Positions 1 through 9,646 of a DNA stretch of 10,318 nucleotides are shown in pieces; position 1 is the stretch's first letter; each line of letters opens with the position of its first letter. A model generated the notes under the pieces. It saw nothing but the letters and a program-made list of their open reading frames with translations, made no database searches and was not told the origin of the DNA. This DNA is from a virus: the UHGV virus genome UHGV-1824378. One strand, 5' to 3'. Made by a program: the position numbers and the translations under genes.

Positions 1-1845
1 ACTAACAAGGCTGGTAAGTCTATTCAGTACCGTACCCGCGATCCTGAATCATGGACCTATACGCTTGATATGAACCAGTTTAACGGCCTTTCCCGTGAAT
101 TGACGGTAGAAGTATCGGCTAAGGGCTATAACAACTCAGAGAGCGCCCCAGCGCGTTTAGTGGCTATCAACCCACAACATAAGCCGATGAAAGGTTTTAG
201 TGCGCGTGGTGGCTTTAATACTGCGTTTGTTAGCTGGGCGGATGACGTAGAACATGACTATGCAGGGTCAATCATTCAGTATGCAACCGATAACACTTTC
301 TCCGATGCAAGGGCAGTGACTACCAATAGCGTTAGTCATACTTCCTTTGATTTGGCTGACGGTGATTATTATATCCGTGGTGCTCACTACGATATTTTCG
401 GTATGGGTGATGCTGTTTGGTCTGAACCGTATTTCATGCAAATGAAATCTACCATTAGCTGGGACGATCAGGACAAAGAAGCACTGGAAGACCTGATTGG
501 TTTACAAGATCGCTTAGATGAAACCATCGCGGATGCTATTGCTCAAGCTGGCGCTAATGCCGATGCTAAGATTGATGCAATGCATAAACAGATTACTACC
601 GAAACCGGAAAGACGGTCCAAGCCTCAGCCGATACTCTCAAGAGTCTGATTGCTACCAGTGAGCAAGCAAGCTCTACTAAGATTGATCAGGTTAAAGCTG
701 AACTGAAAGGCGATATTACGTCGGAAGTTAGCGCATCTGCTACTACGCTGAAACAAGCAATTGCTACCAGTGAGGCGGCAAGCGCAAGCAAGATTGATCA
801 AGTTCGGGTAGAAATGGATGGCAAGATTGCTGGTGTTAACCAAGAAGCGGACGTTAAGATCGATGCTTTGAAGGGAACCATTAACAGCAAATATAATCTG
901 GCAGTTAATGCAGATGGTCGTGTGGCTGGTATTCACATGAGCGCAACCAATGATCCGGCAGAACCGACGAGAATCATCTTTACGGCTGATAAAATTGCGG
1001 TAGCTCCACAAGACGGATCGGAAGTTTGCCCGTTTGGTATCGAAGGTAACAAGGTTTATCTCGATAATGCCATGATTCGCAATGCTGCAATCGGTACAGC
1101 CCAGATTAACGATGCGGCTATTACTACCGCTAAGATCGGCACAGCCCAGATTAACGGCGCTCACATCCAACACGCACAGATCGGAACAGGTCATATCATT
1201 GATGGCTCTATCGATAATGCTAAAATTGGTAACTATATCCAGTCTTATAACTGGAATGGTAACGATGGATGGTATATCGGCAAAGATGGCACTTGTCATT
1301 TTAGACACGCTAATATTCGTGGTCATTTGGTGGCTGATTCCGGCGAAATGAACAACGTAACGATTAATTCAAGTTGCCGCATTTTGGGTATGCTTGATGC
1401 TAATCAGGTGCGTGGTGACTTCGTGAAAGCTATTGGTCGTCGATTCCCACATTGGGACGAAAACCCATCATTGGGCTATCCCGGTTATCCGCAAGGTACA
1501 ATCACTGTTCGAATTGAAGATGATCACCCGTTTGATCGTCAGATTATCGTTCCGGCTATTAGCTTTGGTGGTCTTAATGCGCGTGAAGGCTCGAATAACA
1601 ATACTTACTATGATAACTGTCGCTTGATTGTTCGCAAGAACGGTGCTGAATTATATAACCGTGCATATGGTAGACAGACTGGATTGTATAGTGCTGTTAT
1701 TGATATGCCAGCCGGACACGGACCAGTTACGCTAACTTTTGAAGTAAGTTCAAGCGCAATCAACAACTGGACTCCCAGCACATGGATCAGCGATCTAACG
1801 GTAATGGTAACTAAGAAAGCCGCTACGGGTATTTCTGTTTCTTAA
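1..1845 (+). CDS. Tail fiber / tail-tip host-specificity protein, C-terminal portion (5'-truncated by window edge)
   Basis: Frame 1 is open from nt 1 with no stop in 1-69, so track ORF 70..1845 is the 3' part of a longer gene. Product has an FN3-like segment (FNTAFVSWADD...YYIRGAHYDIF), about three 37-aa coiled-coil-like tandem units (KID...TLK..IATSE) and 15-aa beta-helix-like repeats (IGTAQINDAAITTAK / IGTAQINGAHIQHAQ / IGTGHIIDGSIDNAK), an architecture typical of phage tail fibers or gpJ-like central fibers. Terminator follows. Family assignment is by recollection, not search. Confidence 0.7.
   Translation, partial: TNKAGKSIQYRTRDPESWTYTLDMNQFNGLSRELTVEVSAKGYNNSESAPARLVAINPQHKPMKGFSARGGFNTAFVSWADDVEHDYAGSIIQYATDNTFSDARAVTTNSVSHTSFDLADGDYYIRGAHYDIFGMGDAVWSEPYFMQMKSTISWDDQDKEALEDLIGLQDRLDETIADAIAQAGANADAKIDAMHKQITTETGKTVQASADTLKSLIATSEQASSTKIDQVKAELKGDITSEVSASATTLKQAIATSEAASASKIDQVRVEMDGKIAGVNQEADVKIDALKGTINSKYNLAVNADGRVAGIHMSATNDPAEPTRIIFTADKIAVAPQDGSEVCPFGIEGNKVYLDNAMIRNAAIGTAQINDAAITTAKIGTAQINGAHIQHAQIGTGHIIDGSIDNAKIGNYIQSYNWNGNDGWYIGKDGTCHFRHANIRGHLVADSGEMNNVTINSSCRILGMLDANQVRGDFVKAIGRRFPHWDENPSLGYPGYPQGTITVRIEDDHPFDRQIIVPAISFGGLNAREGSNNNTYYDNCRLIVRKNGAELYNRAYGRQTGLYSAVIDMPAGHGPVTLTFEVSSSAINNWTPSTWISDLTVMVTKKAATGISVS
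568..900 (+). repeat. Imperfect tandem repeat inside tail-fiber gene, about 3 units of 111 bp (37 aa)
   Basis: Units begin with aagattgat at 568, 679 and 790 (period 111 nt). 15-nt identical core attgctaccagtgag at 649-663 and 760-774. Protein units KIDAMHKQITTETGKTVQASADTLKSL / KIDQVKAELKGDITSEVSASATTLKQA / KIDQVRVEMDGKIAGVNQEADVKIDALKGT. Confidence 0.6.
1090..1269 (+). repeat. 45-bp (15-aa) periodic repeats inside tail-fiber gene, beta-helix-like
   Basis: Near-identical 22-mers atcggtacagcccagattaacg (1090-1111) and atcggcacagcccagattaacg (1135-1156); further units start at 1180 and 1225 (atcggaacagg, attggtaac). Encodes IGTAQIN-type repeats. Confidence 0.6.
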
Positions 1846-1862
1846 AATTTAATTTAATAATT

Positions 1863-1905
1863 AATCCCGCTTAATTCTTTTGGGTTAGGCGGGATTATTT
1901 TTATC
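1863..1905 (+). terminator. Putative rho-independent terminator after tail-fiber gene
   Basis: Inverted repeat aatcccgc (1863-1870) / gcgggatt (1889-1896) followed by atttttatc. The loop is long (18 nt), so confidence is moderate. Confidence 0.45.
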
Positions 1906-1947
1906 TAAATAATTCTGCCATTAAATTATAAAATATCGGGGGGCGTA

Positions 1948-2226
1948 ATGACTGAAATTATATATGGCGGTATCGGTGTTATCGCCGTAATTTGTGGTGG
2001 TCTTTGGAGACTTCACCGAAATCAATTAGCAACAGAAAATAGATTGTCGAAATTAGAGTCCAATGATGCATTGTTTAATCAGAAGTTTGAAACAATGCAA
2101 AGTAACCACGACCAGATCGCCGAGAGAGTTTATCGCATGGAACAAACACTACACGGTATAGAGAAGAAAGTGGTTGCGATGGACGCCAAATTTGACCAAG
2201 TTCTCGACATACTCAGACAAAAATAA
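1948..2226 (+). CDS. Small membrane-anchored coiled-coil protein (92 aa); function unknown, possibly lysis- or envelope-associated
   Basis: ATG at 1948 preceded by G-rich SD (cgggggg). N-terminal hydrophobic segment IIYGGIGVIAVICGGLW followed by a charged, heptad-like region. Confidence 0.6.
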   Translation: MTEIIYGGIGVIAVICGGLWRLHRNQLATENRLSKLESNDALFNQKFETMQSNHDQIAERVYRMEQTLHGIEKKVVAMDAKFDQVLDILRQK

Positions 2227-2244
2227 TAATAAAGGGGTGAATAT

Positions 2245-2415
2245 ATGAAGAATAAACTTAAGAAATATTTTGGTTATCTCTTGATTATCGCCCTCACTTA
2301 TAACGTAGCAATTAGACCTCTGCTAACGTCCTTTGGGCTTGAACTCCCGGCTATGACCGTGGATGAACAATTGCTAAGGACACTGGCGGGGGTCTTTTCG
2401 TTATTAGGGGGCTAA
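2245..2415 (+). CDS. Small hydrophobic membrane protein (56 aa), not in supplied ORF track
   Basis: ATG at 2245 with SD aagggg 7 nt upstream; stop taa at 2413-2415; exactly fills the gap between neighbouring genes. Translation MKNKLKKYFGYLLIIALTYNVAIRPLLTSFGLELPAMTVDEQLLRTLAGVFSLLGG has one or two hydrophobic segments. Confidence 0.45.
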   Translation: MKNKLKKYFGYLLIIALTYNVAIRPLLTSFGLELPAMTVDEQLLRTLAGVFSLLGG

Positions 2416-2416
2416 C

Positions 2417-3100
2417 ATGGCAACCAGTACCAATAAACGAAACGCTCTAAGGACTAAGAAAGCGTTACGCCAATGGACTGATAAAGCAACCGATACATTC
2501 GAAAGGGCGATAGGGGAAGGGGCGATCTTTGCTGCTCGTGCACTCCAGAAGAAGATTAACAAGAATGTTGATAGACCTACTCGCTGGACTCAGCAAGCTG
2601 TAGGTAATACCAACTACAAGAACCGATCAGGGACGAGACACCAAATCTTCATCAAGGGCGCAAGGGATAAGGACAAGAAGATCGGCAGTCAAGACGACTA
2701 TCTGAAACACTATTTCGATGGTGGCAAAATCAATAAGCTAGTGCCAATAGCTAACGGTAAGGTCTTAGACTCCCACGGGAACATTAAGGCCATTAAAGGC
2801 GGTAAGATGATGCGTAACATCGAAAATGGCAACTTCATCAAGGTAGAGAACAAGGAAGGGACTTTTATCATGAAGAAGTACAAGCCTAAGAAATCCCGAA
2901 CCAAACGCGCTAGGAATGGATCGGCGGTGGCAAAACGTCGCTTAGAGAAACGCATACAGAAACAGAGCAAGCGAATTGTTGCCGTTAAATCGGATAAAAT
3001 TTCTACTCGTTATTCGACGCTAGGATCGTGGGAAAGCAACGAAGCAATGATGCTTGAAAACATCAATAAGCACATTAAATCGCGCATGAAATACGTTTAA
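2417..3100 (+). CDS. Hypothetical basic (Lys/Arg-rich) protein, 227 aa
   Basis: ATG at 2417 with SD aggggg; start lies 1 nt after the upstream stop (coupled). No family recognised from sequence. Confidence 0.55.
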   Translation: MATSTNKRNALRTKKALRQWTDKATDTFERAIGEGAIFAARALQKKINKNVDRPTRWTQQAVGNTNYKNRSGTRHQIFIKGARDKDKKIGSQDDYLKHYFDGGKINKLVPIANGKVLDSHGNIKAIKGGKMMRNIENGNFIKVENKEGTFIMKKYKPKKSRTKRARNGSAVAKRRLEKRIQKQSKRIVAVKSDKISTRYSTLGSWESNEAMMLENINKHIKSRMKYV

Positions 3101-3103
3101 TCC

Positions 3104-3110
3104 ATAAATA
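3104..3110 (+). promoter_or_regulatory. ATAAATA heptamer, candidate T4-type late promoter core
   Basis: cATAAATA at 3103-3110, 28 nt upstream of ATG 3139. One of only three ATAAATA occurrences I find on either strand; all three lie 28-34 nt upstream of a start codon. Confidence 0.3.
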
Positions 3111-3138
3111 CCCTCATAGAAACTTATGGGGGTATAAC

Positions 3139-3486
3139 ATGGCTAAAAATATTTTCACTGAATTTCCTACTTATCCGGTCGATCAGCTTTCCGGTATTTT
3201 TATTAATGGCATTAGCCCAGAATCTATGACACATGATTTTGAGGCGAAGAGAGTTAAACATAAACAATATAAAGAATGTATCCGCGATCATGAAAAAGGG
3301 ACCGTGTTTTGTGTCGCTACATTGGCTAAACGTCCTAAGTATCGTTTTCGTGTAGGGCAAGAAGTCGATGTAGTTAATCCTTATAGCTTTAACTGTCTGG
3401 GTGATGCACGCGCGGTGTGTGTAGGCACTGCTCCTTATTATATCAAGGGTATGCGCTTTATTGGTTATATCTTCGAAATGATCTAA
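3139..3486 (+). CDS. Hypothetical protein, 115 aa
   Basis: ATG at 3139 with SD ggggg; operon context. The antisense ORF 3124..3360 has low-complexity, implausible composition. Confidence 0.55.
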   Translation: MAKNIFTEFPTYPVDQLSGIFINGISPESMTHDFEAKRVKHKQYKECIRDHEKGTVFCVATLAKRPKYRFRVGQEVDVVNPYSFNCLGDARAVCVGTAPYYIKGMRFIGYIFEMI

Positions 3487-3495
3487 GGGGGTAAT

Positions 3496-3849
3496 ATGTT
3501 AAGTAAGCATTTTTCTCGCAAGGAATTTAAATGTAAATGCGGAAAATGTGATTATGATACAATCGACGCTGAATTACTGGTTATTCTTGAGGATGTACGC
3601 GAACACTTCGGGAAACCAGTGATTATTAACAGTGGGAACCGTTGCCCAACTCATAACAAGAATGTAGGCGGTGCAACCAACAGCTATCACGTTCGAGGTC
3701 GTGCGGCTGACATTGTGGTCAAGGGTGTCTCCCCTGATATTGTCCATGCTTATCTTGATGGGAAATATCCTACTCAATACGGCTTAGGCAAATATAAAAC
3801 CTTTACGCATATCGATTCCAGATCGAAAAAATCACGATGGAATGGATAA
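3496..3849 (+). CDS. Peptidase M15-family (M15_3 / DUF882-like) zinc peptidase, probable peptidoglycan-active hydrolase
   Basis: Motifs SGNRCPTHNKNVGG, SYHVRGRAADI and FTHID match the SG(Y/F)R...H...D...H zinc-ligand pattern of Peptidase_M15_3 as I recall it. SD aaggggg; terminator immediately downstream. Confidence 0.7.
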   Translation: MLSKHFSRKEFKCKCGKCDYDTIDAELLVILEDVREHFGKPVIINSGNRCPTHNKNVGGATNSYHVRGRAADIVVKGVSPDIVHAYLDGKYPTQYGLGKYKTFTHIDSRSKKSRWNG

Positions 3850-3855
3850 AATTAA

Positions 3856-3879
3856 AGCGCCTCTAGTGGGCGCTTTTTT
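3856..3879. terminator. Rho-independent terminator between convergent operons
   Basis: Stem agcgcc (3856-3861) / ggcgct (3869-3874), 7-nt loop, then T6 (3874-3879) on the plus strand. Sits between the plus-strand stop at 3849 and the minus-strand stop at 3881, so may act in both directions. Confidence 0.7.
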
Positions 3880-3880
3880 G

Positions 3881-5371
3881 TTATATAGCAATTGTTTTAG
3901 TTGCATATCTGAACTTGTCGGTTAGATAATATCGGATTCTCTCAAGTGCATGTTTTACCGCATAATTTTTATGCTTGACTTTTCCGTTACGACCGAATAT
4001 ACACAGATGATCGATAAGATCCCAGACCGTTGCAATATCCTTAGAACCATGTTTACGCAATGCACGACCGATACTCTGACGAACGATAGTTGATTCCTTC
4101 ACTGGATGACCGAAAATAACATGGTGCAAGTTCTTAATTGAAACACCAGTAGAGAATACACCATAAGACGCAACACAAATGATCCCTGTGTCACCCTCCG
4201 CCATTTTCTTAAATTCATCACGTTCTTCTGTCTTAACTCCACCGTCAATATAATAAACCTTGTCGTGTACCTTCTGTAACGCGTCATACATAAGTTTTCC
4301 ATGCTTAGTATTGCGGAACATAAGGAATACGTTTTCACCCTTCTTAGCGAGTTTTAGCGCCAAATTACAAGCAAACTTATTACGTCGTGGGTTAGACGTA
4401 ATATACTTGATCTCTTCCGCATATTCTCGCCCCTTAACCGCGCTACATTCCTCATCGGTATAACGAAGGAAAAGACAGTTAATTTTCAGTTTTGTCACCT
4501 GCCCTTCTTCCATCAGGCGGTCAATACTCACGATCTTAGAAATATCACCGAAAAGCCCGACATACTGCATTAAATGGCACTTTGATTCTTTCGGGGAACC
4601 AGTCATACCGATCTTAAACTGGCAATGATTCATTCCGTTAATGATATTGGTAATATTTTTGGCACTAGCCTTATGCGATTCATCAACTATCAACATTCCA
4701 TATTGTTTGAACCATTCAGGAGGCATCTTGCACGCTGATTGCCAGGTACTAACCGTGATTAACCTGTCTCCCGGATGTTTCCCGCTACCACTCATCATTG
4801 TATGAATTGCTTCATAAGGGAATAACCGATAATCGATGAAATCATCCCTCATTTGAACCACTAGCGATGTAGTCGGGACAATGATTAACACCTTTCCGGT
4901 GTAATGCTCTAAGTACCAACGAGACAGCATACAAGCAATCAATGACTTTCCGGCACTGGTAGGAAGAACCAGCATTCTACGGCGATTGTGGATACCCTGA
5001 AAGACTGCTTCACGCTGATACCAGTAAGGATTGATTTTATTGGAACCGGAATACACTTCTAAAGAGTCAATCCACGAATCAATCTGTTCTTTGGTTACAT
5101 CTTCCTTCTCAAGTAATCGCGGGTCAATCCAGACTGAATAGCCCATATTTTTAACGAAGACACCCAATGTTTTTAATAGTCCAATTGGTAGGGTATTTTC
5201 ATGCGTAAACAGTCTTATTCGTCCATCCCAGCCGGAATACTTGTAGCGGGGGCTAAACCTAGCCCCTTCAACCTCAAACGAGAAATAATCTCTTAATTCC
5301 ATTCCGATAGAAGGAGAGCAATCAACCTTAACGAAACTGTAATCTTGAAAATGAATTTTAATATCTTGCAT
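3881..5371 (-). CDS. uvsW: UvsW-type SF2 DNA helicase (T4 UvsW-like)
   Basis: Walker A LPTSAGKS, motif II DESH, motif III TGS, motif VI QSIGRALRKHG. N- and C-terminal regions resemble T4 UvsW as I recall it (MQDIKIHFQDYSFVKVDC..., ...VWDLID...). I place the start at ATG 5371 (SD ggag upstream, overlaps upstream stop as TAATG); the track ORF starts at GTG 5380. Confidence 0.88.
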   Translation of the reverse strand: MQDIKIHFQDYSFVKVDCSPSIGMELRDYFSFEVEGARFSPRYKYSGWDGRIRLFTHENTLPIGLLKTLGVFVKNMGYSVWIDPRLLEKEDVTKEQIDSWIDSLEVYSGSNKINPYWYQREAVFQGIHNRRRMLVLPTSAGKSLIACMLSRWYLEHYTGKVLIIVPTTSLVVQMRDDFIDYRLFPYEAIHTMMSGSGKHPGDRLITVSTWQSACKMPPEWFKQYGMLIVDESHKASAKNITNIINGMNHCQFKIGMTGSPKESKCHLMQYVGLFGDISKIVSIDRLMEEGQVTKLKINCLFLRYTDEECSAVKGREYAEEIKYITSNPRRNKFACNLALKLAKKGENVFLMFRNTKHGKLMYDALQKVHDKVYYIDGGVKTEERDEFKKMAEGDTGIICVASYGVFSTGVSIKNLHHVIFGHPVKESTIVRQSIGRALRKHGSKDIATVWDLIDHLCIFGRNGKVKHKNYAVKHALERIRYYLTDKFRYATKTIAI

Positions 5372-5940
5372 TAGTTCCACTCCACACTTGCAATATTCTT
5401 TATATTGTTTAGTGATTTATTGCAGTAGTGGAATGTTTCAGTTTTGCCGTATTCAATCCCGCCTATACCCACATCCAGTAATCTCTTTATTGCTCTTTCA
5501 GTGGCTAAAGCATGTTTCATTGATGGCATTTCACCAGCAAAGACAATATCAAAGTTATGACCGGGATTGCGTACACCCAGATTAACACGTCGCTTGATGA
5601 TTGACTTTGTAACACCAAATTTACCAATATCCCCTGATTTCATTACATAGAGATAAGGCACACCCGCTTTATATTGAAAGTAATCACTATTGAAGCAAAC
5701 ACATCGTTTACCTTCATTAAGCAGGTTAGTAGCTGATTTGTCGGCTCTATTACCGCATCGGGTACATGTTAGAGCAATTCTTGAATGAAGCCCTTTAAAC
5801 TCACCCAGAAAGCCATGAAAGACTAACGGTAAGTCCTTCTCTTTGATGTGAGTCAGAATGCGTTGTTCTAATGCCGATGGAGTTACAGCACGGGAGGATT
5901 TAGGAGTAAAAACAATATCTTTAGCCATTACTGGAATCAT
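5371..5940 (-). CDS. Zinc-ribbon + GIY-YIG-superfamily (T5orf172-type) nuclease-like protein, homing-endonuclease-like, 189 aa
   Basis: ATG at 5940 with SD gtgagg. CxxC...CxC cluster (CTRCGNRADKSATNLLNEGKRCVCF) followed by YLYVM...GKFGVTKS...RR...ERAIKR...GKTETF, which matches the T5orf172 / GIY-YIG-like signature as I recall it. Stop overlaps helicase start, implying translational coupling. Confidence 0.6.
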   Translation of the reverse strand: MIPVMAKDIVFTPKSSRAVTPSALEQRILTHIKEKDLPLVFHGFLGEFKGLHSRIALTCTRCGNRADKSATNLLNEGKRCVCFNSDYFQYKAGVPYLYVMKSGDIGKFGVTKSIIKRRVNLGVRNPGHNFDIVFAGEMPSMKHALATERAIKRLLDVGIGGIEYGKTETFHYCNKSLNNIKNIASVEWN

Positions 5941-6002
5941 ATAGACCTCACTTTTTTAACTTATAGGCATAACCTCAATATGGTTGGTTTGGGATTTAGG
6001 GT

Positions 6003-6035
6003 CGCGTATTATACACATTCAGATAGAGAATGCAA
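6003..6035 (-). promoter_or_regulatory. Candidate sigma70-type promoter for the nuclease-helicase operon
   Basis: Minus strand reads TTGCAT (6035-6030), 16-nt spacer, TATAAT (6013-6008), then ACGCG (6007-6003), about 65 nt upstream of ATG 5940. The TATAATACGCG 11-mer recurs at 9051-9061. Confidence 0.4.
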
Positions 6036-6055
6036 TAGTAAGACAATTTTCTCTA

Positions 6056-6062
6056 ATAAATA
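6056..6062 (+). promoter_or_regulatory. ATAAATA heptamer, candidate T4-type late promoter core
   Basis: aATAAATA at 6055-6062, 32 nt upstream of ATG 6095. Confidence 0.3.
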
Positions 6063-6094
6063 GTAGTGAGCTTATTATTTTAGAGGAAACTACT

Positions 6095-7270
6095 ATGAAA
6101 CTTGCTTACGCTGCCGAAATTCCTTTTGTTAAGAAAACTCGCGGTTTATCGCCGGAAGAGTACCAACAACGAATCATCGCTAAACTGGAACCTGCTTTCG
6201 TATTTGGTGGATTTATCCTACCGTGGAAGGGTAATCACACTTACTTTCGAATCTACAATTTAGATACACAAGAATATAAGGACTACAAATTACGCAAACT
6301 GGAAGATACTAACGGGGGTGAGTTATTCCAGACTGAAAAGGCTGTATGGTTGAAAATGGAATCTCGTTGTAATGAGAAGGGAAAGAAATTCCTCGGATGG
6401 CAAGGAGAATGGAAAGGGCGAAATAGAACGAAAGCCCGTGTTTTGTGCCCTGAACACAATCAAATCATGACGCCATCTCTATTACATGCTCTCAAGGATG
6501 ATTTTGATTTTGATTGTAAAATCTGTATGGCTGAAAAATCCCAACGGGTAAGAAGTGGCAAGACTTTTGATGAAGTTATTAAGGACAAAGAGACAATCAT
6601 CAATGCACGTTGCGAGAGTACGCCTTACACCTTCAAAGGATTCATCATAAACACCCCACACCTAAAGGATGTTAAATTTAAAACCTATTGCAAGTCACAT
6701 AACCACGAATGGGAATCTCATTTAAGATGTGCTGATTCTTTCACTTGTCCGCTTTGTATTAAAGACCAACTGGTGCAACTGTCTAACCGGACTTATCAGG
6801 GTAAGGCTAGTTTCTACATTCAATTATTAGATGACAAATTTATTAAATTTGGAATCACTACCCGAAAACCAGAAGAACGAATGAGAGAACAAACCAGAAA
6901 GAGCAACTTCACTCACCGCTTAATCTTTACTCATGAGTTTGAGGATGGTTGGAAAGCTGCCGATTTAGAGCATGAAGTAAAACAACGCTTCAAGACTCAT
7001 GCAGCACCCTACAAAGATTTCAAGGATGGATGGTCGGAAACTCTGACTATTGATGAGTTACCACACTTACAGCAACTGGTTTATGACTACCTAACCAATC
7101 AACCGGACGAGGCTAATATGTGGGTATCTCCGAAAGATGTATTTGATGACGATACATTCAAGCTACATACTCACTTCTACGGCATCAATAAACCGGAATT
7201 TTTCTGTATTGATGACGACAGTCCTGATTTAATGGATGAATACTTTAATACGCTCTTAGACGCTGCCTAA
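6095..7270 (+). CDS. Tandem zinc-finger + GIY-YIG-superfamily (T5orf172-type) nuclease-like protein, 391 aa
   Basis: ATG at 6095 with SD gaggaaa; the track ORF begins at an upstream TTG (5984) that I do not favour. Two Cys/His modules (CPEHN...CKIC; CKSHNHEWESHLRCADSFTCPLC) then FYIQLL...KFGITTRKPEERMRE...EHEVKQRFK...GWSETL, paralogous to the C-terminal half of the 5371-5940 protein. Confidence 0.65.
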   Translation: MKLAYAAEIPFVKKTRGLSPEEYQQRIIAKLEPAFVFGGFILPWKGNHTYFRIYNLDTQEYKDYKLRKLEDTNGGELFQTEKAVWLKMESRCNEKGKKFLGWQGEWKGRNRTKARVLCPEHNQIMTPSLLHALKDDFDFDCKICMAEKSQRVRSGKTFDEVIKDKETIINARCESTPYTFKGFIINTPHLKDVKFKTYCKSHNHEWESHLRCADSFTCPLCIKDQLVQLSNRTYQGKASFYIQLLDDKFIKFGITTRKPEERMREQTRKSNFTHRLIFTHEFEDGWKAADLEHEVKQRFKTHAAPYKDFKDGWSETLTIDELPHLQQLVYDYLTNQPDEANMWVSPKDVFDDDTFKLHTHFYGINKPEFFCIDDDSPDLMDEYFNTLLDAA

Positions 7271-7285
7271 CGCAATTAAATTCAA

Positions 7286-7307
7286 AAGGGGTACAGATGT
7301 ACCCCTT
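7286..7307. terminator. Bidirectional hairpin terminator between convergent genes
   Basis: Perfect palindrome aaggggtac-agat-gtacccctt (7286-7307). Minus strand has the U-tract (plus-strand ttcaaaa 7281-7287); plus strand has a weaker T-run after it. Confidence 0.6.
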
Positions 7308-7343
7308 AAAGTGTTTAGCTCGTTATACGTCGATTTAGGCCGC

Positions 7344-9023
7344 TTAAATTCCAAATTCCTGTAATGGACCTGGTATTTCCTCTTCTGGTTTCCAGTTCTT
7401 ATCTGTCAGCATGTCTAAACATGGATGCAAAACAAGCCCGTTACTTTCCAGAATCTGTCTATCATTGATAGTTTTCAAATCAATGAATATCCGGCCTTTC
7501 CTCGTTCCTCTTGAATTTTCTATTACAACTCTCTGGGTCTTTCCATCGATGTATTCCAGTACAAACAAGTTTTTGTTTCTGTCAATCCTGCTACACCCGA
7601 TCCGCTTTAGAGCTTGCTTAATCTTAAACCGGACCTTTAGTCGTTCCTCGTTGTAAACATCTTCTAAATCAAATTCTGCGAGCTTCTCCCAGCCTTGAGA
7701 GTCAACAGAATACATTTCCTCTTCTGCCATCTTGATCTGATTGTAGAGTGTTTCACGCTCGCTATTGAGGGTAGTAATCTGATCGGCTAGCTCCTTCGTT
7801 GCTCCTGTCATAGCAGAAAGGGCAATCAGGTTATCAATCTTGCGTGATATTTCATCAACCTGTACTTTCAACGCCGGAACCGGATTAGCCTTATCCTCAG
7901 CAATCCAGATTTTATCAGCCAGCAATTGCAATACAGCTTTCTCTAATTGATCCCCTCGAAAACTCCAGTTTGGATGCTCGCAATCAAGTCTACGTGAACG
8001 GGTCGCATCACATGTATAACGATACTGGTCAGAACGTTTGTTTGTTCCCTTCACTTTAACCATAGCGCAACCGCAATGATCACATTTCAATAGGCCAATG
8101 CCACTAAGCAGGGGGATCGGTTTAACTTCTTCCTTGTCTCCAAAGTTCCATGCTCTAGCACCAATATTTTTCTTAAGGTGATAGAACGTAGCATCATCAA
8201 TAACACGAGGGTAATAATCCTTTAACTCATAGTTAACACCATCAACAGAGACCTCCTTGATACCAATCAAAGCGCGGGTATGGAACAACCTTTCAACCAT
8301 TGCCCGTGACCATTTTGAATGCTTCTTGTTGCTTACTGCTGGTGGTGGTGCATATGTCTCGTTAAGGTGATCCAGTATTTCGGCGGTTGAACGTCCATTC
8401 TTCCGTAATTCCACAATCTCCTGAACAACAGGGAAGTATGTAGGATGAGGCAACACATAACCGGAAGTGGTATCAGTCCACCACATATTCTTTCCAACTT
8501 CCTCGATAGCCACTGCCGGATTTTGTGGATTTTCTTGATGAGCTTTAATCTTAATCAATGCGCTTGAGTTAGTACGATTGCGCTTAGTCTGACTTTCCTC
8601 ATTACCACGGATGAATAAAAGGATGGAGAACATCAGGTCCATCGGATTAGCGGTAACAGTATCCAGCGAGTAGATCTTGTTATCCATGCCAGTAACAATG
8701 GTTATTCCCCTACGGATGATTGAAAGGAATAACTCCTGCGCACTGACAATATCGGCACGGGATAAGCGGTCCAAGTTTTCAATGAATAGCCAGCTACCAA
8801 CAGGAACGGATCTACCAATTGCATCAAGGAAACGAGATAGCGCCCCTGTTTTAGAGTTAGCACCCTTAAACGCAGATACACCCAGATCCTGATAATCATT
8901 TACCAGTTCAAGGTCATACTTTGCCGCAACCTCTCTCGCCATCCTGATTTGTCGTTCATAACTCGAACCATCATTCTGACGCATAGACGAGAAGCGAATA
9001 TACGAATACAGTTTAGTTTTCAT
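7344..9023 (-). CDS. Large serine recombinase (serine integrase / resolvase superfamily), 559 aa
   Basis: N-terminal catalytic domain motifs YSYIRFSSMRQ (catalytic Ser), DLGVSAFKG and ENLDRLSR; Cys-rich zinc-ribbon (CDHCGCAMVKVKG...YTCDATRSRRLDCEHP); C-terminal coiled-coil. The size and domain order match large serine recombinases. Confidence 0.88.
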   Translation of the reverse strand: MKTKLYSYIRFSSMRQNDGSSYERQIRMAREVAAKYDLELVNDYQDLGVSAFKGANSKTGALSRFLDAIGRSVPVGSWLFIENLDRLSRADIVSAQELFLSIIRRGITIVTGMDNKIYSLDTVTANPMDLMFSILLFIRGNEESQTKRNRTNSSALIKIKAHQENPQNPAVAIEEVGKNMWWTDTTSGYVLPHPTYFPVVQEIVELRKNGRSTAEILDHLNETYAPPPAVSNKKHSKWSRAMVERLFHTRALIGIKEVSVDGVNYELKDYYPRVIDDATFYHLKKNIGARAWNFGDKEEVKPIPLLSGIGLLKCDHCGCAMVKVKGTNKRSDQYRYTCDATRSRRLDCEHPNWSFRGDQLEKAVLQLLADKIWIAEDKANPVPALKVQVDEISRKIDNLIALSAMTGATKELADQITTLNSERETLYNQIKMAEEEMYSVDSQGWEKLAEFDLEDVYNEERLKVRFKIKQALKRIGCSRIDRNKNLFVLEYIDGKTQRVVIENSRGTRKGRIFIDLKTINDRQILESNGLVLHPCLDMLTDKNWKPEEEIPGPLQEFGI

Positions 9024-9029
9024 ACCATT

Positions 9030-9072
9030 TCCAAAACAAAAAGCCCCTACCGCGTATTATAACGATAGGGGC
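9030..9072 (-). terminator. Rho-independent terminator (minus strand) downstream of the 9089-9334 gene
   Basis: Stem gccccta (9043-9049) / taggggc (9066-9072) with 10-nt loop; on the minus strand it is followed by TTTTTGTTTT (plus 9030-9042). Confidence 0.55.
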
Positions 9073-9084
9073 ATTGGTTAGTAA
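9051..9084 (-). promoter_or_regulatory. Candidate sigma70-type promoter for the serine recombinase, embedded in the terminator hairpin
   Basis: Minus strand reads TTACTA (9084-9079), 17-nt spacer, TATAAT (9061-9056), then ACGCG (9055-9051), about 30 nt upstream of ATG 9023. Same TATAATACGCG 11-mer as at 6003-6013. Confidence 0.4.
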
Positions 9085-9088
9085 GTCA

Positions 9089-9334
9089 TTAATATTTCTT
9101 TCCAGTTAGTTTTGCATCACGTTTATTAATATCCTCGATATGACTCCATACACACGCAGTAATAAAGTCGTCATCGTCACCAACTCCGGCAACCTGTGCT
9201 AATTCAGTACACAGTTGATTTAAAGAAGGTGCAACGGCAGCACGCTTGACACTATCACCCTGTACATATTGTTCGGCATTTGCAGCACCAACCAAACCCA
9301 GAGCAAGAACGATACCCGCGATAATCTTTTTCAT
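9089..9334 (-). CDS. Small secreted (signal-peptide) protein, 81 aa
   Basis: ATG at 9334 with SD gagga. N-terminus MKKIIAGIVLALGLVGAANA-EQY has a basic n-region, hydrophobic core and AxA cleavage site; mature part about 61 aa with two Cys and an acidic DDDD patch. Confidence 0.6.
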   Translation of the reverse strand: MKKIIAGIVLALGLVGAANAEQYVQGDSVKRAAVAPSLNQLCTELAQVAGVGDDDDFITACVWSHIEDINKRDAKLTGKKY

Positions 9335-9368
9335 AGTAGAATTTCCTCTTGTTATTTGAATTACGATA

Positions 9369-9376
9369 TATTTATA
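9369..9376 (-). promoter_or_regulatory. TATAAATA octamer (minus strand), candidate T4-type late promoter
   Basis: Plus-strand tatttata at 9369-9376 is TATAAATA on the minus strand, 34 nt upstream of ATG 9334 and just downstream of the stop at 9380. Confidence 0.3.
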
Positions 9377-9379
9377 TCG

Positions 9380-9505
9380 TTAAAAATTGATGCTAATTAC
9401 CAGACCAAACACAACCGCACCAATCAAATCAATCCAGTTAATACACAATCCGCTATATTCTTTCTTGAATGTCTTAGATGAAATGCCATCATGAAATTGT
9501 TTCAT
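9380..9505 (-). CDS. Putative small tail-anchored membrane protein (41 aa), not in ORF track
   Basis: Hand translation of the minus strand gives MKQFHDGISSKTFKKEYSGLCINWIDLIGAVVFGLVISINF with stop TAA at 9380-9382. ATG lies 3 nt after the upstream small-ORF stop. Short, so speculative. Confidence 0.3.
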   Translation of the reverse strand: MKQFHDGISSKTFKKEYSGLCINWIDLIGAVVFGLVISINF

Positions 9506-9508
9506 TGC

Positions 9509-9589
9509 TCACCCCATACTAACGACAAGATAAGAAAGACTAATCATAGTTGTGAGACTACCTCCCACGAATGAGATAAAAGCTAACAT
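9509..9589 (-). CDS. Putative hydrophobic micro-protein (26 aa), not in ORF track
   Basis: ATG at 9589 preceded by SD ggaga at about 7 nt; translation MLAFISFVGGSLTTMISLSYLVVSMG. Sits directly after a terminator, so expression would need read-through. Speculative. Confidence 0.22.
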   Translation of the reverse strand: MLAFISFVGGSLTTMISLSYLVVSMG

Positions 9590-9603: not shown

Positions 9604-9632
9604 TTTAAAAAGCGGTGGGAATTACACCCACC
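9604..9632 (-). terminator. Rho-independent terminator (minus strand) after the 9647-10033 gene
   Basis: Minus strand reads GGTGGG-TGTAATT-CCCACC followed by GCTTTTT (plus-strand stem 9614-9619 / 9627-9632, T-tract complement 9607-9611), 15 nt past the stop at 9647. Confidence 0.65.
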
Positions 9633-9646
9633 AAATTAGAAATTAA

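Follow-up and report, generated by a model that had tools for sequence, protein, structure and literature searches.

The 10,318-nucleotide stretch of UHGV virus genome UHGV-1824378 analysed here (the window) carries three copies of the heptamer ATAAATA and one copy of the variant CTAAATA, and these four sites probably belong to a promoter class specific to a prophage family, with a specificity factor that is probably phage-encoded and is not recognisable by homology. The proposed element would be a -10-like sequence lacking a -35, with the consensus V-TAAATA (V = A, C or G) corresponding to positions -12 to -6 of T4 late promoters, and transcription would start approximately 6 nucleotides (nt) downstream of the core, usually at an A. 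V-TAAATA would serve as the general non-sigma-70 promoter class of a family of approximately 37 kb prophages of Escherichia, Salmonella, Proteus and Atlantibacter, where nearly all transcription units except those with sigma-70 promoters would be read from a copy located 15-60 nt ahead of the start codon. On the model of T4 gp55, the core of the host RNA polymerase (RNAP) would act together with a factor that recognises only this short -10-like sequence, and such a factor would most likely be encoded by the phage itself.

Placement and conservation of the motif

Exact search on both strands of the window showed three copies of ATAAATA at 3104-3110 (+), 6056-6062 (+) and 9369-9375 (-), and a single copy of the octamer TATAAATA at 9369-9376 (-). 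The preliminary description of this DNA, which was made from the letters alone, had listed the same three heptamers and the same octamer but had overlooked CTAAATA at 1905-1911. The spacing of 28-34 nt to the start codons that it gave agreed with the measured gaps on the same strand (Table 1), and the ATG at 6095 that it used for the T5orf172-type gene, for which the open reading frame (ORF) list had a TTG at 5984, is preceded by a Shine-Dalgarno (SD) sequence and is annotated in RefSeq in relatives. The total numbers were at chance for both the heptamer (3 against 3.33 expected) and the octamer (1 against 1.03), yet the placement was non-random. Among the 2610 heptamers with at least three copies in the window, ATAAATA was the only one with all copies 15-45 nt 5' of starts on the coding strand. 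The hexamer TAAATA was depleted on both strands of the window, with 4 copies against 11.75 ± 3.08 expected, and all four were intergenic, on the coding strand and 28-36 nt before a start, so that the placement claimed earlier for three sites was also true for the fourth. The exact count proposed in the preliminary description found no extra copies within the window genes and a non-random placement before starts; the genes of the window had no TAAATA in either orientation, while synonymous-codon shuffles predicted 2.8 sense and 3.4 antisense copies.

Of 5426 complete E. coli genomes, 60 had chromosomal segments that were 91-98% identical to the whole window, and in NZ_AP027850.1 the window was the right arm of a prophage of approximately 36.8 kb which splits ycdX. 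The whole-prophage locus is denoted L003 and its proteins are given p-names (p60, p75, p200 and others). All 14 copies of ATAAATA in this prophage were intergenic although intergenic DNA makes up 12% of the element (P ~3e-7 when compared with AT-only heptamers, whose copies were 34% intergenic), and the heptamer ranked 5th of 4205 for intergenic enrichment, behind an iteron and terminator tails. Twelve of the 14 copies were on the coding strand of the next gene, with distances to an annotated ATG of 24, 25, 28, 29, 31, 32, 34, 45, 61, 70 and 79 nt, and V-TAAATA was co-oriented with local transcription in 28 of 29 copies. The motif preceded terS, terL and the head, connector, tail and lysis-cassette genes, and also Rha, p149, p60, p75, p200, the endonuclease-like gene and the gene of a secreted moron-like protein. 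Within the virion operon, nearly every intergenic region had a V-TAAATA, often directly after a terminator-like hairpin. Overall, nearly all transcription units carried the motif save three to four with consensus sigma-70 promoters; this separate class was represented in the left arm by one 12/12 TTGACA-17-TATAAT promoter and two 11/12 promoters, and the units with sigma-70 promoters were p60/p313, p110 and CapR-uvsW. The divergent genes terL and p200 were separated by an 85-nt intergenic region containing the pair TATTTAT-N18-ATAAATA, and owing to this divergence both promoters must lie within these 85 nt.

Two further observations were made at motif copies in L003. Exactly between the back-to-back copies of terL and p200 lies TATCAACAATTTA (30044-30067), which fits WATCAANNNNTTR, a sequence that we take to be the IHF consensus; the prophage with this IHF-like sequence also encodes a Rha-family protein. 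In addition, the gene for a 668-amino acid (aa) protease/scaffold-capsid fusion (23965-25971) has three sense copies of CTAAATA inside, at 25026, 25104 and 25461, the last of which is 32 nt upstream of an internal SD and a start at 25428. This suggests that the C-terminal capsid part may have nested expression from an internal promoter.

For the family-wide comparison, alignment of TerL produced 35 IMG/VR loci (604 kb) with TerL 51-67% identical, mostly prophage contigs of approximately 35 kb, and distant TerL relatives (22-31% identical) were used for comparison. A copy was considered associated with a start when an SD and a start codon opening an ORF of 45 aa or more lay within 12-50 nt downstream. 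This was the case for 124 of the 241 ATAAATA copies in the 35 loci against 8.7% for all AT-only heptamers and 4% for ATAAATA in the reverse orientation, which made ATAAATA the top-scoring AT heptamer, while its association with starts was only at background in the distant relatives. Scanning of mismatches showed association for 52% of ATAAATA, 48% of CTAAATA, 39% of GTAAATA and 10% of TTAAATA copies, the first two being approximately equal. Any substitution within TAAATA lowered the association to at most 10% (from approximately 50%), showing that all six positions were required. Co-orientation with genes was 75-95% in most family loci compared to 52-63% for 14 other hexamers of the same composition. 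The motif was kept even among lineages that share no sequence similarity in the terL leader, as ttcATAAATAca 15-17 nt before the ATG in some and as CTAAATAC in others. At the four window sites, TAAATA was invariant among 26 related prophages (1905 and 3104 in 26, 9369 in 22) while 32% of the flank columns varied (the invariance was judged by eye; Fisher P = 0.008 on a noisy alignment), and at the 6056 site TAAATAGTAGTGA was preserved in 19 relatives whose flanks had otherwise diverged.

The orientation of copies inside genes distinguished a DNA-level from an RNA-level signal. When all 38 coding sequences (CDSs) of the prophage (32.4 kb) were subjected to 1000 synonymous-codon shuffles, TAAATA was completely missing in the antisense orientation (0 against 9.4 ± 2.6 expected, with none of the 1000 shuffles reaching 0) and was close to expectation in the sense orientation (9 against 10.1). 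None of 14 control hexamers with four A and two T showed a comparable antisense loss. The purge of antisense copies seen in the window recurred in clade B, with 4 copies against 15.7 expected, and likewise in the siphovirus-like module which forms the first ~28 kb of the 141 kb record PQ671644.1 ('Escherichia phage DCP80', labelled Gaprivervirus) and is related to the prophage family (0 against 4.0), but not in the distant TerL relatives (15 against 10.1). A purge limited to the non-transcribed orientation is predicted for a potent and self-sufficient promoter, and an RNA motif would not yield it.

The geometry of the sites was compared with T4-like control sites. The logo of 109 unique contexts had no information upstream of -15 and no -35 signal, and a scan for consensus sigma-70 promoters gave no match at any of the four window sites. 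In clades A and B, the PQ671644.1 module and the T4-like control sites, the position exactly 6 nt beyond the core was enriched in A (57-85%); because TATAAATA spans -13 to -6 in T4, this position equals +1 (PMC1524935). At -12, the prophage family (clade A) had A in 37%, C in 45%, G in 16% and T in 1%, and T at -13 was found at approximately 39% and was unselected, while the T4-like control sites had A at -12 in 100% and T at -13 in 82%. Only one of the four window sites had the full TATAAATA. T4 gp55 flips A-12, A-9 and A-8 into pockets (PMC7892883). Nolan et al. reported that RB49, KVP40, S-PM2 and others conserve T-13 poorly, and the late promoters of Aeh1 are CTAAATA from -12 (PMC1524935); this laxity and the Aeh1 sequence place V-TAAATA within the known spectrum of gp55-type promoters. 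The reading as T4-type late promoters in the preliminary description was borne out for the core TAAATA, the lack of a -35 and the spacing to the downstream A, but not for the bases at -13 and -12, the T4-family carrier or gp55. Overall, this reading is partly supported: the sites behave as T4-late-like, -10-only promoters, and they do not belong to the gp55 regulon of T4 if this is defined by its proteins and by the -13/-12 bases.

Some of the sites were coupled to predicted hairpins. RNA reading through the 3104 site (3086-3150) was predicted to fold with -17.8 kcal/mol (z -3.96) and with the SD of the 115-aa gene paired, while RNA from the predicted start (3116-3150) had -1.0 kcal/mol and was unstructured. 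Transcripts initiated at the promoter would not include the 5' arm of the hairpin, which is 5' of the predicted start, and their SD would thus be free. Two other genes had a like layout, terL with ATAAATA-CCTTCAT...ATGAGGG and the distal-tail gene with the motif in the loop of CCCCCATAGT/ACTATGGGGG, and for these two and the 115-aa gene only promoter-initiated transcripts would be translated efficiently. The 6056 site had a weaker predicted SD-pairing helix (z -1.2). The 9369 site was centred in a short palindrome, ACGATATAAATATATCGT (9363-9380), with the SD free and no coupling hairpin. The ribosome-binding sites (RBSs) across the prophage were unusually uniform and G-rich, with AAGGGGT or GGGGGT followed by AAT-ATG (e.g. 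window 3128-3132 and 1937-1942), and for this reason heptamers of the AGGGGTA type were among the most intergenic-enriched words.

The proposed specificity factor and alternative explanations

Searches for a protein that reads the motif were made at several levels. The preliminary description had named the lack of a gp55-like sigma factor as refuting its reading and had proposed a check for gp55, gp33 and gp45, and at sequence level the outcome went against it, as no homologue of these was found in the prophage or in 62 related loci, where tblastn with gp55, gp33, gp45 and RpbA showed noise only; the gp proteins were recovered in the T4-like part of PQ671644.1 as a positive control. Two weak hits of the gp55 search in locus L047 (best E 0.05) fell in a tail-fibre ORF and were rejected. 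Pfam and PHROGs searches on approximately 30 prophage proteins matched Rha, the TerS-like protein, structural and endonuclease-like proteins but no sigma and no anti-sigma factor, and one clade-B locus was equally uninformative with no sigma. As gp55 proteins have no Pfam domain on record, 27 diverse gp55 sequences were aligned as a profile, and hhalign of each prophage protein family against this alignment gave probabilities below 1% throughout. A PDB sequence search with p200, p110 and p313 was empty. The proteins p60, p75 and p200 (60, 75 and 200 aa) were paralogues sharing a domain of approximately 60 aa with a helix-turn-helix (HTH) and a beta-hairpin. One clade-B locus and PQ671644.1 had this domain as well, and homologues, all annotated as 'hypothetical', were found only in E. 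coli, Salmonella and Proteus. The AlphaFold2 (AF2) model of p200 (pLDDT, a per-residue confidence score, of 75) had two tandem domains of three helices and a beta-hairpin with no PDB match by Foldseek. p200 was rejected as a sigma factor because this model is not sigma-like, and the HTH domain shared by the p60/p75/p200 family (~50 aa) was rejected as a reader of the -10 element because it is too small.

Several points weigh against a family-specific promoter class with a phage-encoded factor. The promoter function is something we infer from sequence patterns, and the near-identity of the core to gp55-type promoters would be explained most simply by gp55 itself, which is absent from the prophage. 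Some sites overlap possible sigma-70 -10 hexamers (ATAAATAAT contains AATAAT; TAGACA-16-AATAAT). The related loci are mosaic and partly near-identical and the family counts therefore include pseudo-replication, from which the independent lineages (clade B, PQ671644.1 and Atlantibacter) and the shuffle tests are free. Finally, no non-structural protein was common to all motif-bearing lineages save the ~50-aa HTH domain, and no candidate factor came from PHROGs, Pfam, the PDB sequence search, hhalign against gp55 or the AF2 model of p200 with Foldseek. On balance, we lean towards the view that small temperate enterobacterial siphoviruses run most of their genome from bare T4-late-type promoters with no recognisable gp55, gp33 or gp45, either through a new or extremely diverged sigma-like factor, which would have converged on or descended from gp55-type recognition, or through the machinery of a co-infecting T4-like phage.

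Firing of gp55-type late promoters in trans by the gp55, gp33 and gp45 of a superinfecting T4-like phage, e.g. a Krischvirus with unmodified cytosine, is considered unlikely. The outcome could be piracy, with the prophage making its own virions in the late phase of the helper, or the triggering of a defence (nucleases or uvsW). The core and the start geometry are the same as in T4-type promoters, a weak T at -13 and CTAAATA are documented in T4-like phages (PMC1524935), and the prophage has neither a gp55, gp33 or gp45 homologue nor a recognisable replication module. Moreover, a uvsW 80-90% identical in nucleotides to that of Krischvirus implies co-residence in one cell, and PQ671644.1, which alone among the cultured-phage records has a related structural module (TerL 44%), was co-assembled with a Gaprivervirus and has full TATAAATA sites. 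However, this record is scrambled with duplicated genes, so that co-assembly proves nothing, and it was rejected as proof of a T4 partnership as its module was seen nowhere else. About half of the functional-looking sites have C or G at -12, where gp55 pockets an A (PMC7892883) and the coliphage T4-like controls are uniform. The motif precedes virtually all virion and lysis genes of a seemingly complete temperate phage, which would be expected to finish induction alone. The gp38-like adhesin, tried and rejected as a second T4 link, is nearest to the adhesins of Stx-lambdoid phages and not to those of T-evens. It is about as improbable that the sites are ordinary sigma-70 promoters with a weak and unusual -10 (TAAATA, TATAAA or AATAAT), activated by a phage regulator, e.g. 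Rha or one of the HTH proteins p60, p75 and p200, or constitutive in moron genes such as the 81-aa gene. The prophage does encode a Rha-family regulator and three HTH paralogues, the 81-aa gene is in a terminator-flanked, moron-like cassette, and acceptable hexamers overlap some sites (TAGACA-16-AATAAT before p149; TATAAA at 9371-9376), but TAAATA has an A where sigma-70 needs a nearly invariant T-7. Besides the empty consensus scan at the four window sites, alignment by hand gave only poor hexamers and spacers, and no -35, extended -10 TG or conserved activator box was found upstream. The exclusion of T just 5' of the core eliminates TTAAATA-type registers, the use of a perfect TTGACA-17-TATAAT elsewhere in the prophage sets the two classes clearly apart, and the full antisense avoidance implies that the 6-mer alone is potent.

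An AUAAAUA signal acting in the 5' untranslated region of the RNA, as a site for RNase E-type processing, for a translational regulator or for ribosome standby, would be quite surprising. The constant position relative to start codons, the location of several sites in or next to SD-containing hairpins and the AU-rich motif being single-stranded in predicted folds would fit such a signal, but selection on RNA would act on sense copies, and these were at expectation while antisense copies were purged from coding DNA. In addition, the terL/p200 pair needs two promoters in 85 nt and the motif is the only symmetric element there, six exact bases with exclusion of T at one flank are typical of the recognition of DNA by sigma factors, and A is enriched at the start-site position. 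That an AT-rich heptamer fell into AT-rich intergenic DNA merely by chance is hardly credible; the window count at expectation and the 26% of AT-only heptamer copies in the window that are intergenic would allow it, but it is refuted by the family-level, strand, mismatch-scan and shuffle statistics. Finally, an H-NS nucleation site (TCGATAAATT) or an IHF site was rejected, as these predict no strand specificity, fixed start distance or antisense avoidance.

To our knowledge, promoters read through no more than a -10-like element have until now been linked to large lytic phages with gp55, gp33 and a sliding clamp. The same signal in temperate prophages of 35-38 kb lacking gp55, gp33 and a clamp would point to an undiscovered RNAP specificity factor or to the use of gp55 across phages, and dependence on gp55 in trans, if true, would be transcriptional piracy involving a prophage and a lytic phage. 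The motif also yields a map of promoters that can be tested in a so far uncharacterised prophage family carried by approximately 1% of complete E. coli genomes, and a T4-like layout, with a promoter per gene and terminator-promoter cassettes, would thus exist in temperate siphoviruses. A uvsW gene and TATAAATA-like motifs are insufficient to infer a 'T4-like phage'.

The carrier prophage and features of the window

The carrier is a temperate siphovirus-type element and not a T4-family phage. Its head and packaging genes encode a TerS-like protein, a gpA-type TerL, a portal protein and a major capsid fusion protein, and its tail genes include a lambda-J-like tip whose C-terminus is encoded at window 70-1845. 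Also present are genes for a large serine recombinase and a CapR/T5orf172 endonuclease-like protein, a lysis-type cassette ending in an M15 peptidase, uvsW preceded by a CapR-domain gene, and small accessory genes. No recognisable replication module, replication initiator or repressor was found among the prophage proteins. The best cultured-phage match of TerL was 44% (PQ671644.1), with all others below 31%. Homologues of p200 place the family in Escherichia, Salmonella and Proteus, and a search of species-representative genomes showed one more relative in Atlantibacter, the sole extra host genus. Literature searches for the motif with prophage and for a ycdX prophage showed no description of the family.

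Comparison of the window with 50,697 phage records showed only one matching segment, 4004-5371 in the uvsW-like helicase, with 80-90% nucleotide identity to Krischvirus/RB49-type phages. Judged by this identity, uvsW is a recent horizontal acquisition from a Krischvirus. The T4-like helicase which the preliminary description had cited in support of its reading was this acquired gene, the only part of the window matching T4-like phages. The uvsW-type helicase gene (3881-5380, -) has its start overlapped by the CapR-domain/endonuclease-like gene (5371-5940, -) and is followed by a bidirectional terminator (3854-3876), and such a terminator has also been reported downstream of uvsW.1 in T4-like phages (PMC1524935). 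As a speculation, early or constitutive UvsW of the prophage could interfere with T4-type origin (R-loop) replication. The CapR-uvsW operon had no TAAATA and represented a contrasting promoter class; its extended -10 promoter was not listed in the consensus sigma-70 scan, which demands a -35.

The coordinates of the window sites, their genes and other features are as in Table 1. CTAAATA at 1905-1911 was directly 3' of the terminator of the tail-tip (J-like) gene, and the unit that follows it (1948-3849) closes with the M15 peptidase, which is endolysin-like. The 6056 site is one of a sub-class of sites in which the heptamer is extended to ATAAATA-nTAGTGA(g/a)C and has AATTTCTnnTT upstream, found at window 6063-6069 and at L003 32990-32996 and 34277-34283, before the endonuclease-like gene, p149 and p60; the nTAGTGA extension may be an operator superimposed on the promoter. 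Two tiny hydrophobic ORFs of 41 aa (9380-9505) and approximately 26 aa (9510-9588) on the minus strand precede the 81-aa gene, with which they form a moron-like cassette bracketed by the strong terminators 9043-9072 and 9613-9633 (-). The loop of the 9043-9072 terminator hairpin has a TATAAT, just 5' of the recombinase gene. Outside the window, the left arm has a stretch of 1.4 kb with no annotated gene (L003 32952-34337) which contains CTAGT-rich repeats (33200-33450), approximately eight iterons of CAGGGGCAAAAAT (33640-33820) and two tandem near-perfect sigma-70 promoters (33860-33916). This stretch may be an origin or an immunity-control region.

Table 1. Coordinates of the motif sites, genes and other features of the window and of the HTH paralogues of the whole prophage (L003)
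Feature	Position	Strand	Remarks
CTAAATA	1905-1911	+	Fourth copy; 36 nt 5' of the ATG (1948) of the 92-aa gene
ATAAATA	3104-3110	+	28 nt 5' of the ATG (3139) of the 115-aa gene; predicted start A3116
ATAAATA	6056-6062	+	32 nt 5' of the ATG (6095) of the 391-aa gene; in a 154-nt divergent intergenic region
TATAAATA (core TAAATA 9369-9374)	9369-9376	-	34 nt 5' of the ATG (9334) of the 81-aa gene
Putative extended -10 sigma-70-type promoter TGTGTATAAT	6008-6017	-	Read from sequence; operon of the CapR-domain 189-aa gene and uvsW-like helicase
Predicted 12-bp hairpin in read-through RNA	3108-3135	+	Pairs the SD GGGGG (3128-3132) of the 115-aa gene
Intrinsic terminator 3' of the tail-tip gene	1862-1897	+	CTAAATA 8 nt downstream, giving a terminator-promoter cassette
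92-aa gene	1948-2226	+	N-terminal membrane helix, coiled coil; opens unit 1948-3849
115-aa gene, no function assigned	3139-3486	+	Homologue in the siphovirus-like module of PQ671644.1
391-aa CapR/MUG113/T5orf172 (GIY-YIG superfamily) endonuclease-like gene	6095-7270	+	
81-aa secreted small protein (signal peptide) gene	9089-9334	-	Followed by strong terminator 9043-9072
HTH paralogue, 200 aa	L003 30099-30701		Motif GIS..TFY..LKKYDIK
HTH paralogue, 75 aa	L003 30737-30964		Motif GIS..TFY..LKKYDIK
HTH paralogue, 60 aa	L003 34338-34520		Motif GIS..TFY..LKKYDIK

Comparison with known promoter systems

The prophage sites share with T4-type late promoters the invariant TAAATA core, the lack of a -35 and the A 6 nt downstream. 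In both, there are many copies per genome, which are found before single genes and also in the sense orientation inside upstream genes, and both show coupling with hairpins that sequester the RBS, which in the prophage is by prediction. Late promoters of the T4 genes e, 49 and I-TevI are located within such hairpins, an arrangement which the predicted layout at the 115-aa gene resembles. Unlike the carriers of T4-type promoters, the prophage is a temperate element of 37 kb of the siphovirus type with a serine recombinase, and it has no detectable homologue of gp55, gp33, gp45 or the clamp loader. Its family also differs from T4-type sites in having A, C and G at -12 within one genome and no preference for T-13, and its motif precedes regulator-like and accessory genes and thus does not demonstrably mark a 'late' class, to which the preliminary description had assigned the 115-aa gene, the T5orf172-type gene and the secreted small protein. 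Aeromonas phage Aeh1 has the same TAAATA core and tolerates or prefers C at -12 (PMC1524935), but it is a T4-like myovirus with a diverged gp55, while the prophage family alternates A, C and G in one genome.

The module of PQ671644.1 is syntenic with the prophage for TerL (44%), portal, major capsid protein, tail and J genes and for the homologues of p227 and p115. In the module, TAAATA is confined to the coding strand and coding DNA is free of antisense copies, and all of its 11 ATAAATA copies are coding-strand; it differs in having the full TATAAATA at 10 of 10 non-overlapping copies. The T4-like part of the record encodes gp55, gp33 and gp45, and its T4-like genes for rIIA, gp45, exonuclease subunits and primase are duplicated in both orientations. 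The record looks like a scrambled co-assembly with a T4-like Gaprivervirus, and a search of E. coli genomes and other phage records found its siphovirus-like module in none of them.

Among enterobacterial temperate phages, late genes are activated by Q antitermination in lambda, while Ogr of P2, C of Mu and Lpa of P1 activate sigma-70 promoters. These phages have one or few late promoters, composed of a sigma-70 -10 with an upstream activator site or a qut site. The prophage shares with them a temperate lifestyle and virion and lysis genes which come on after a sigma-70-driven early phase. It differs from them in its approximately 20-30 bare -10-like elements of 6-7 bp, one before nearly every gene and often arranged as terminator-promoter cassettes.

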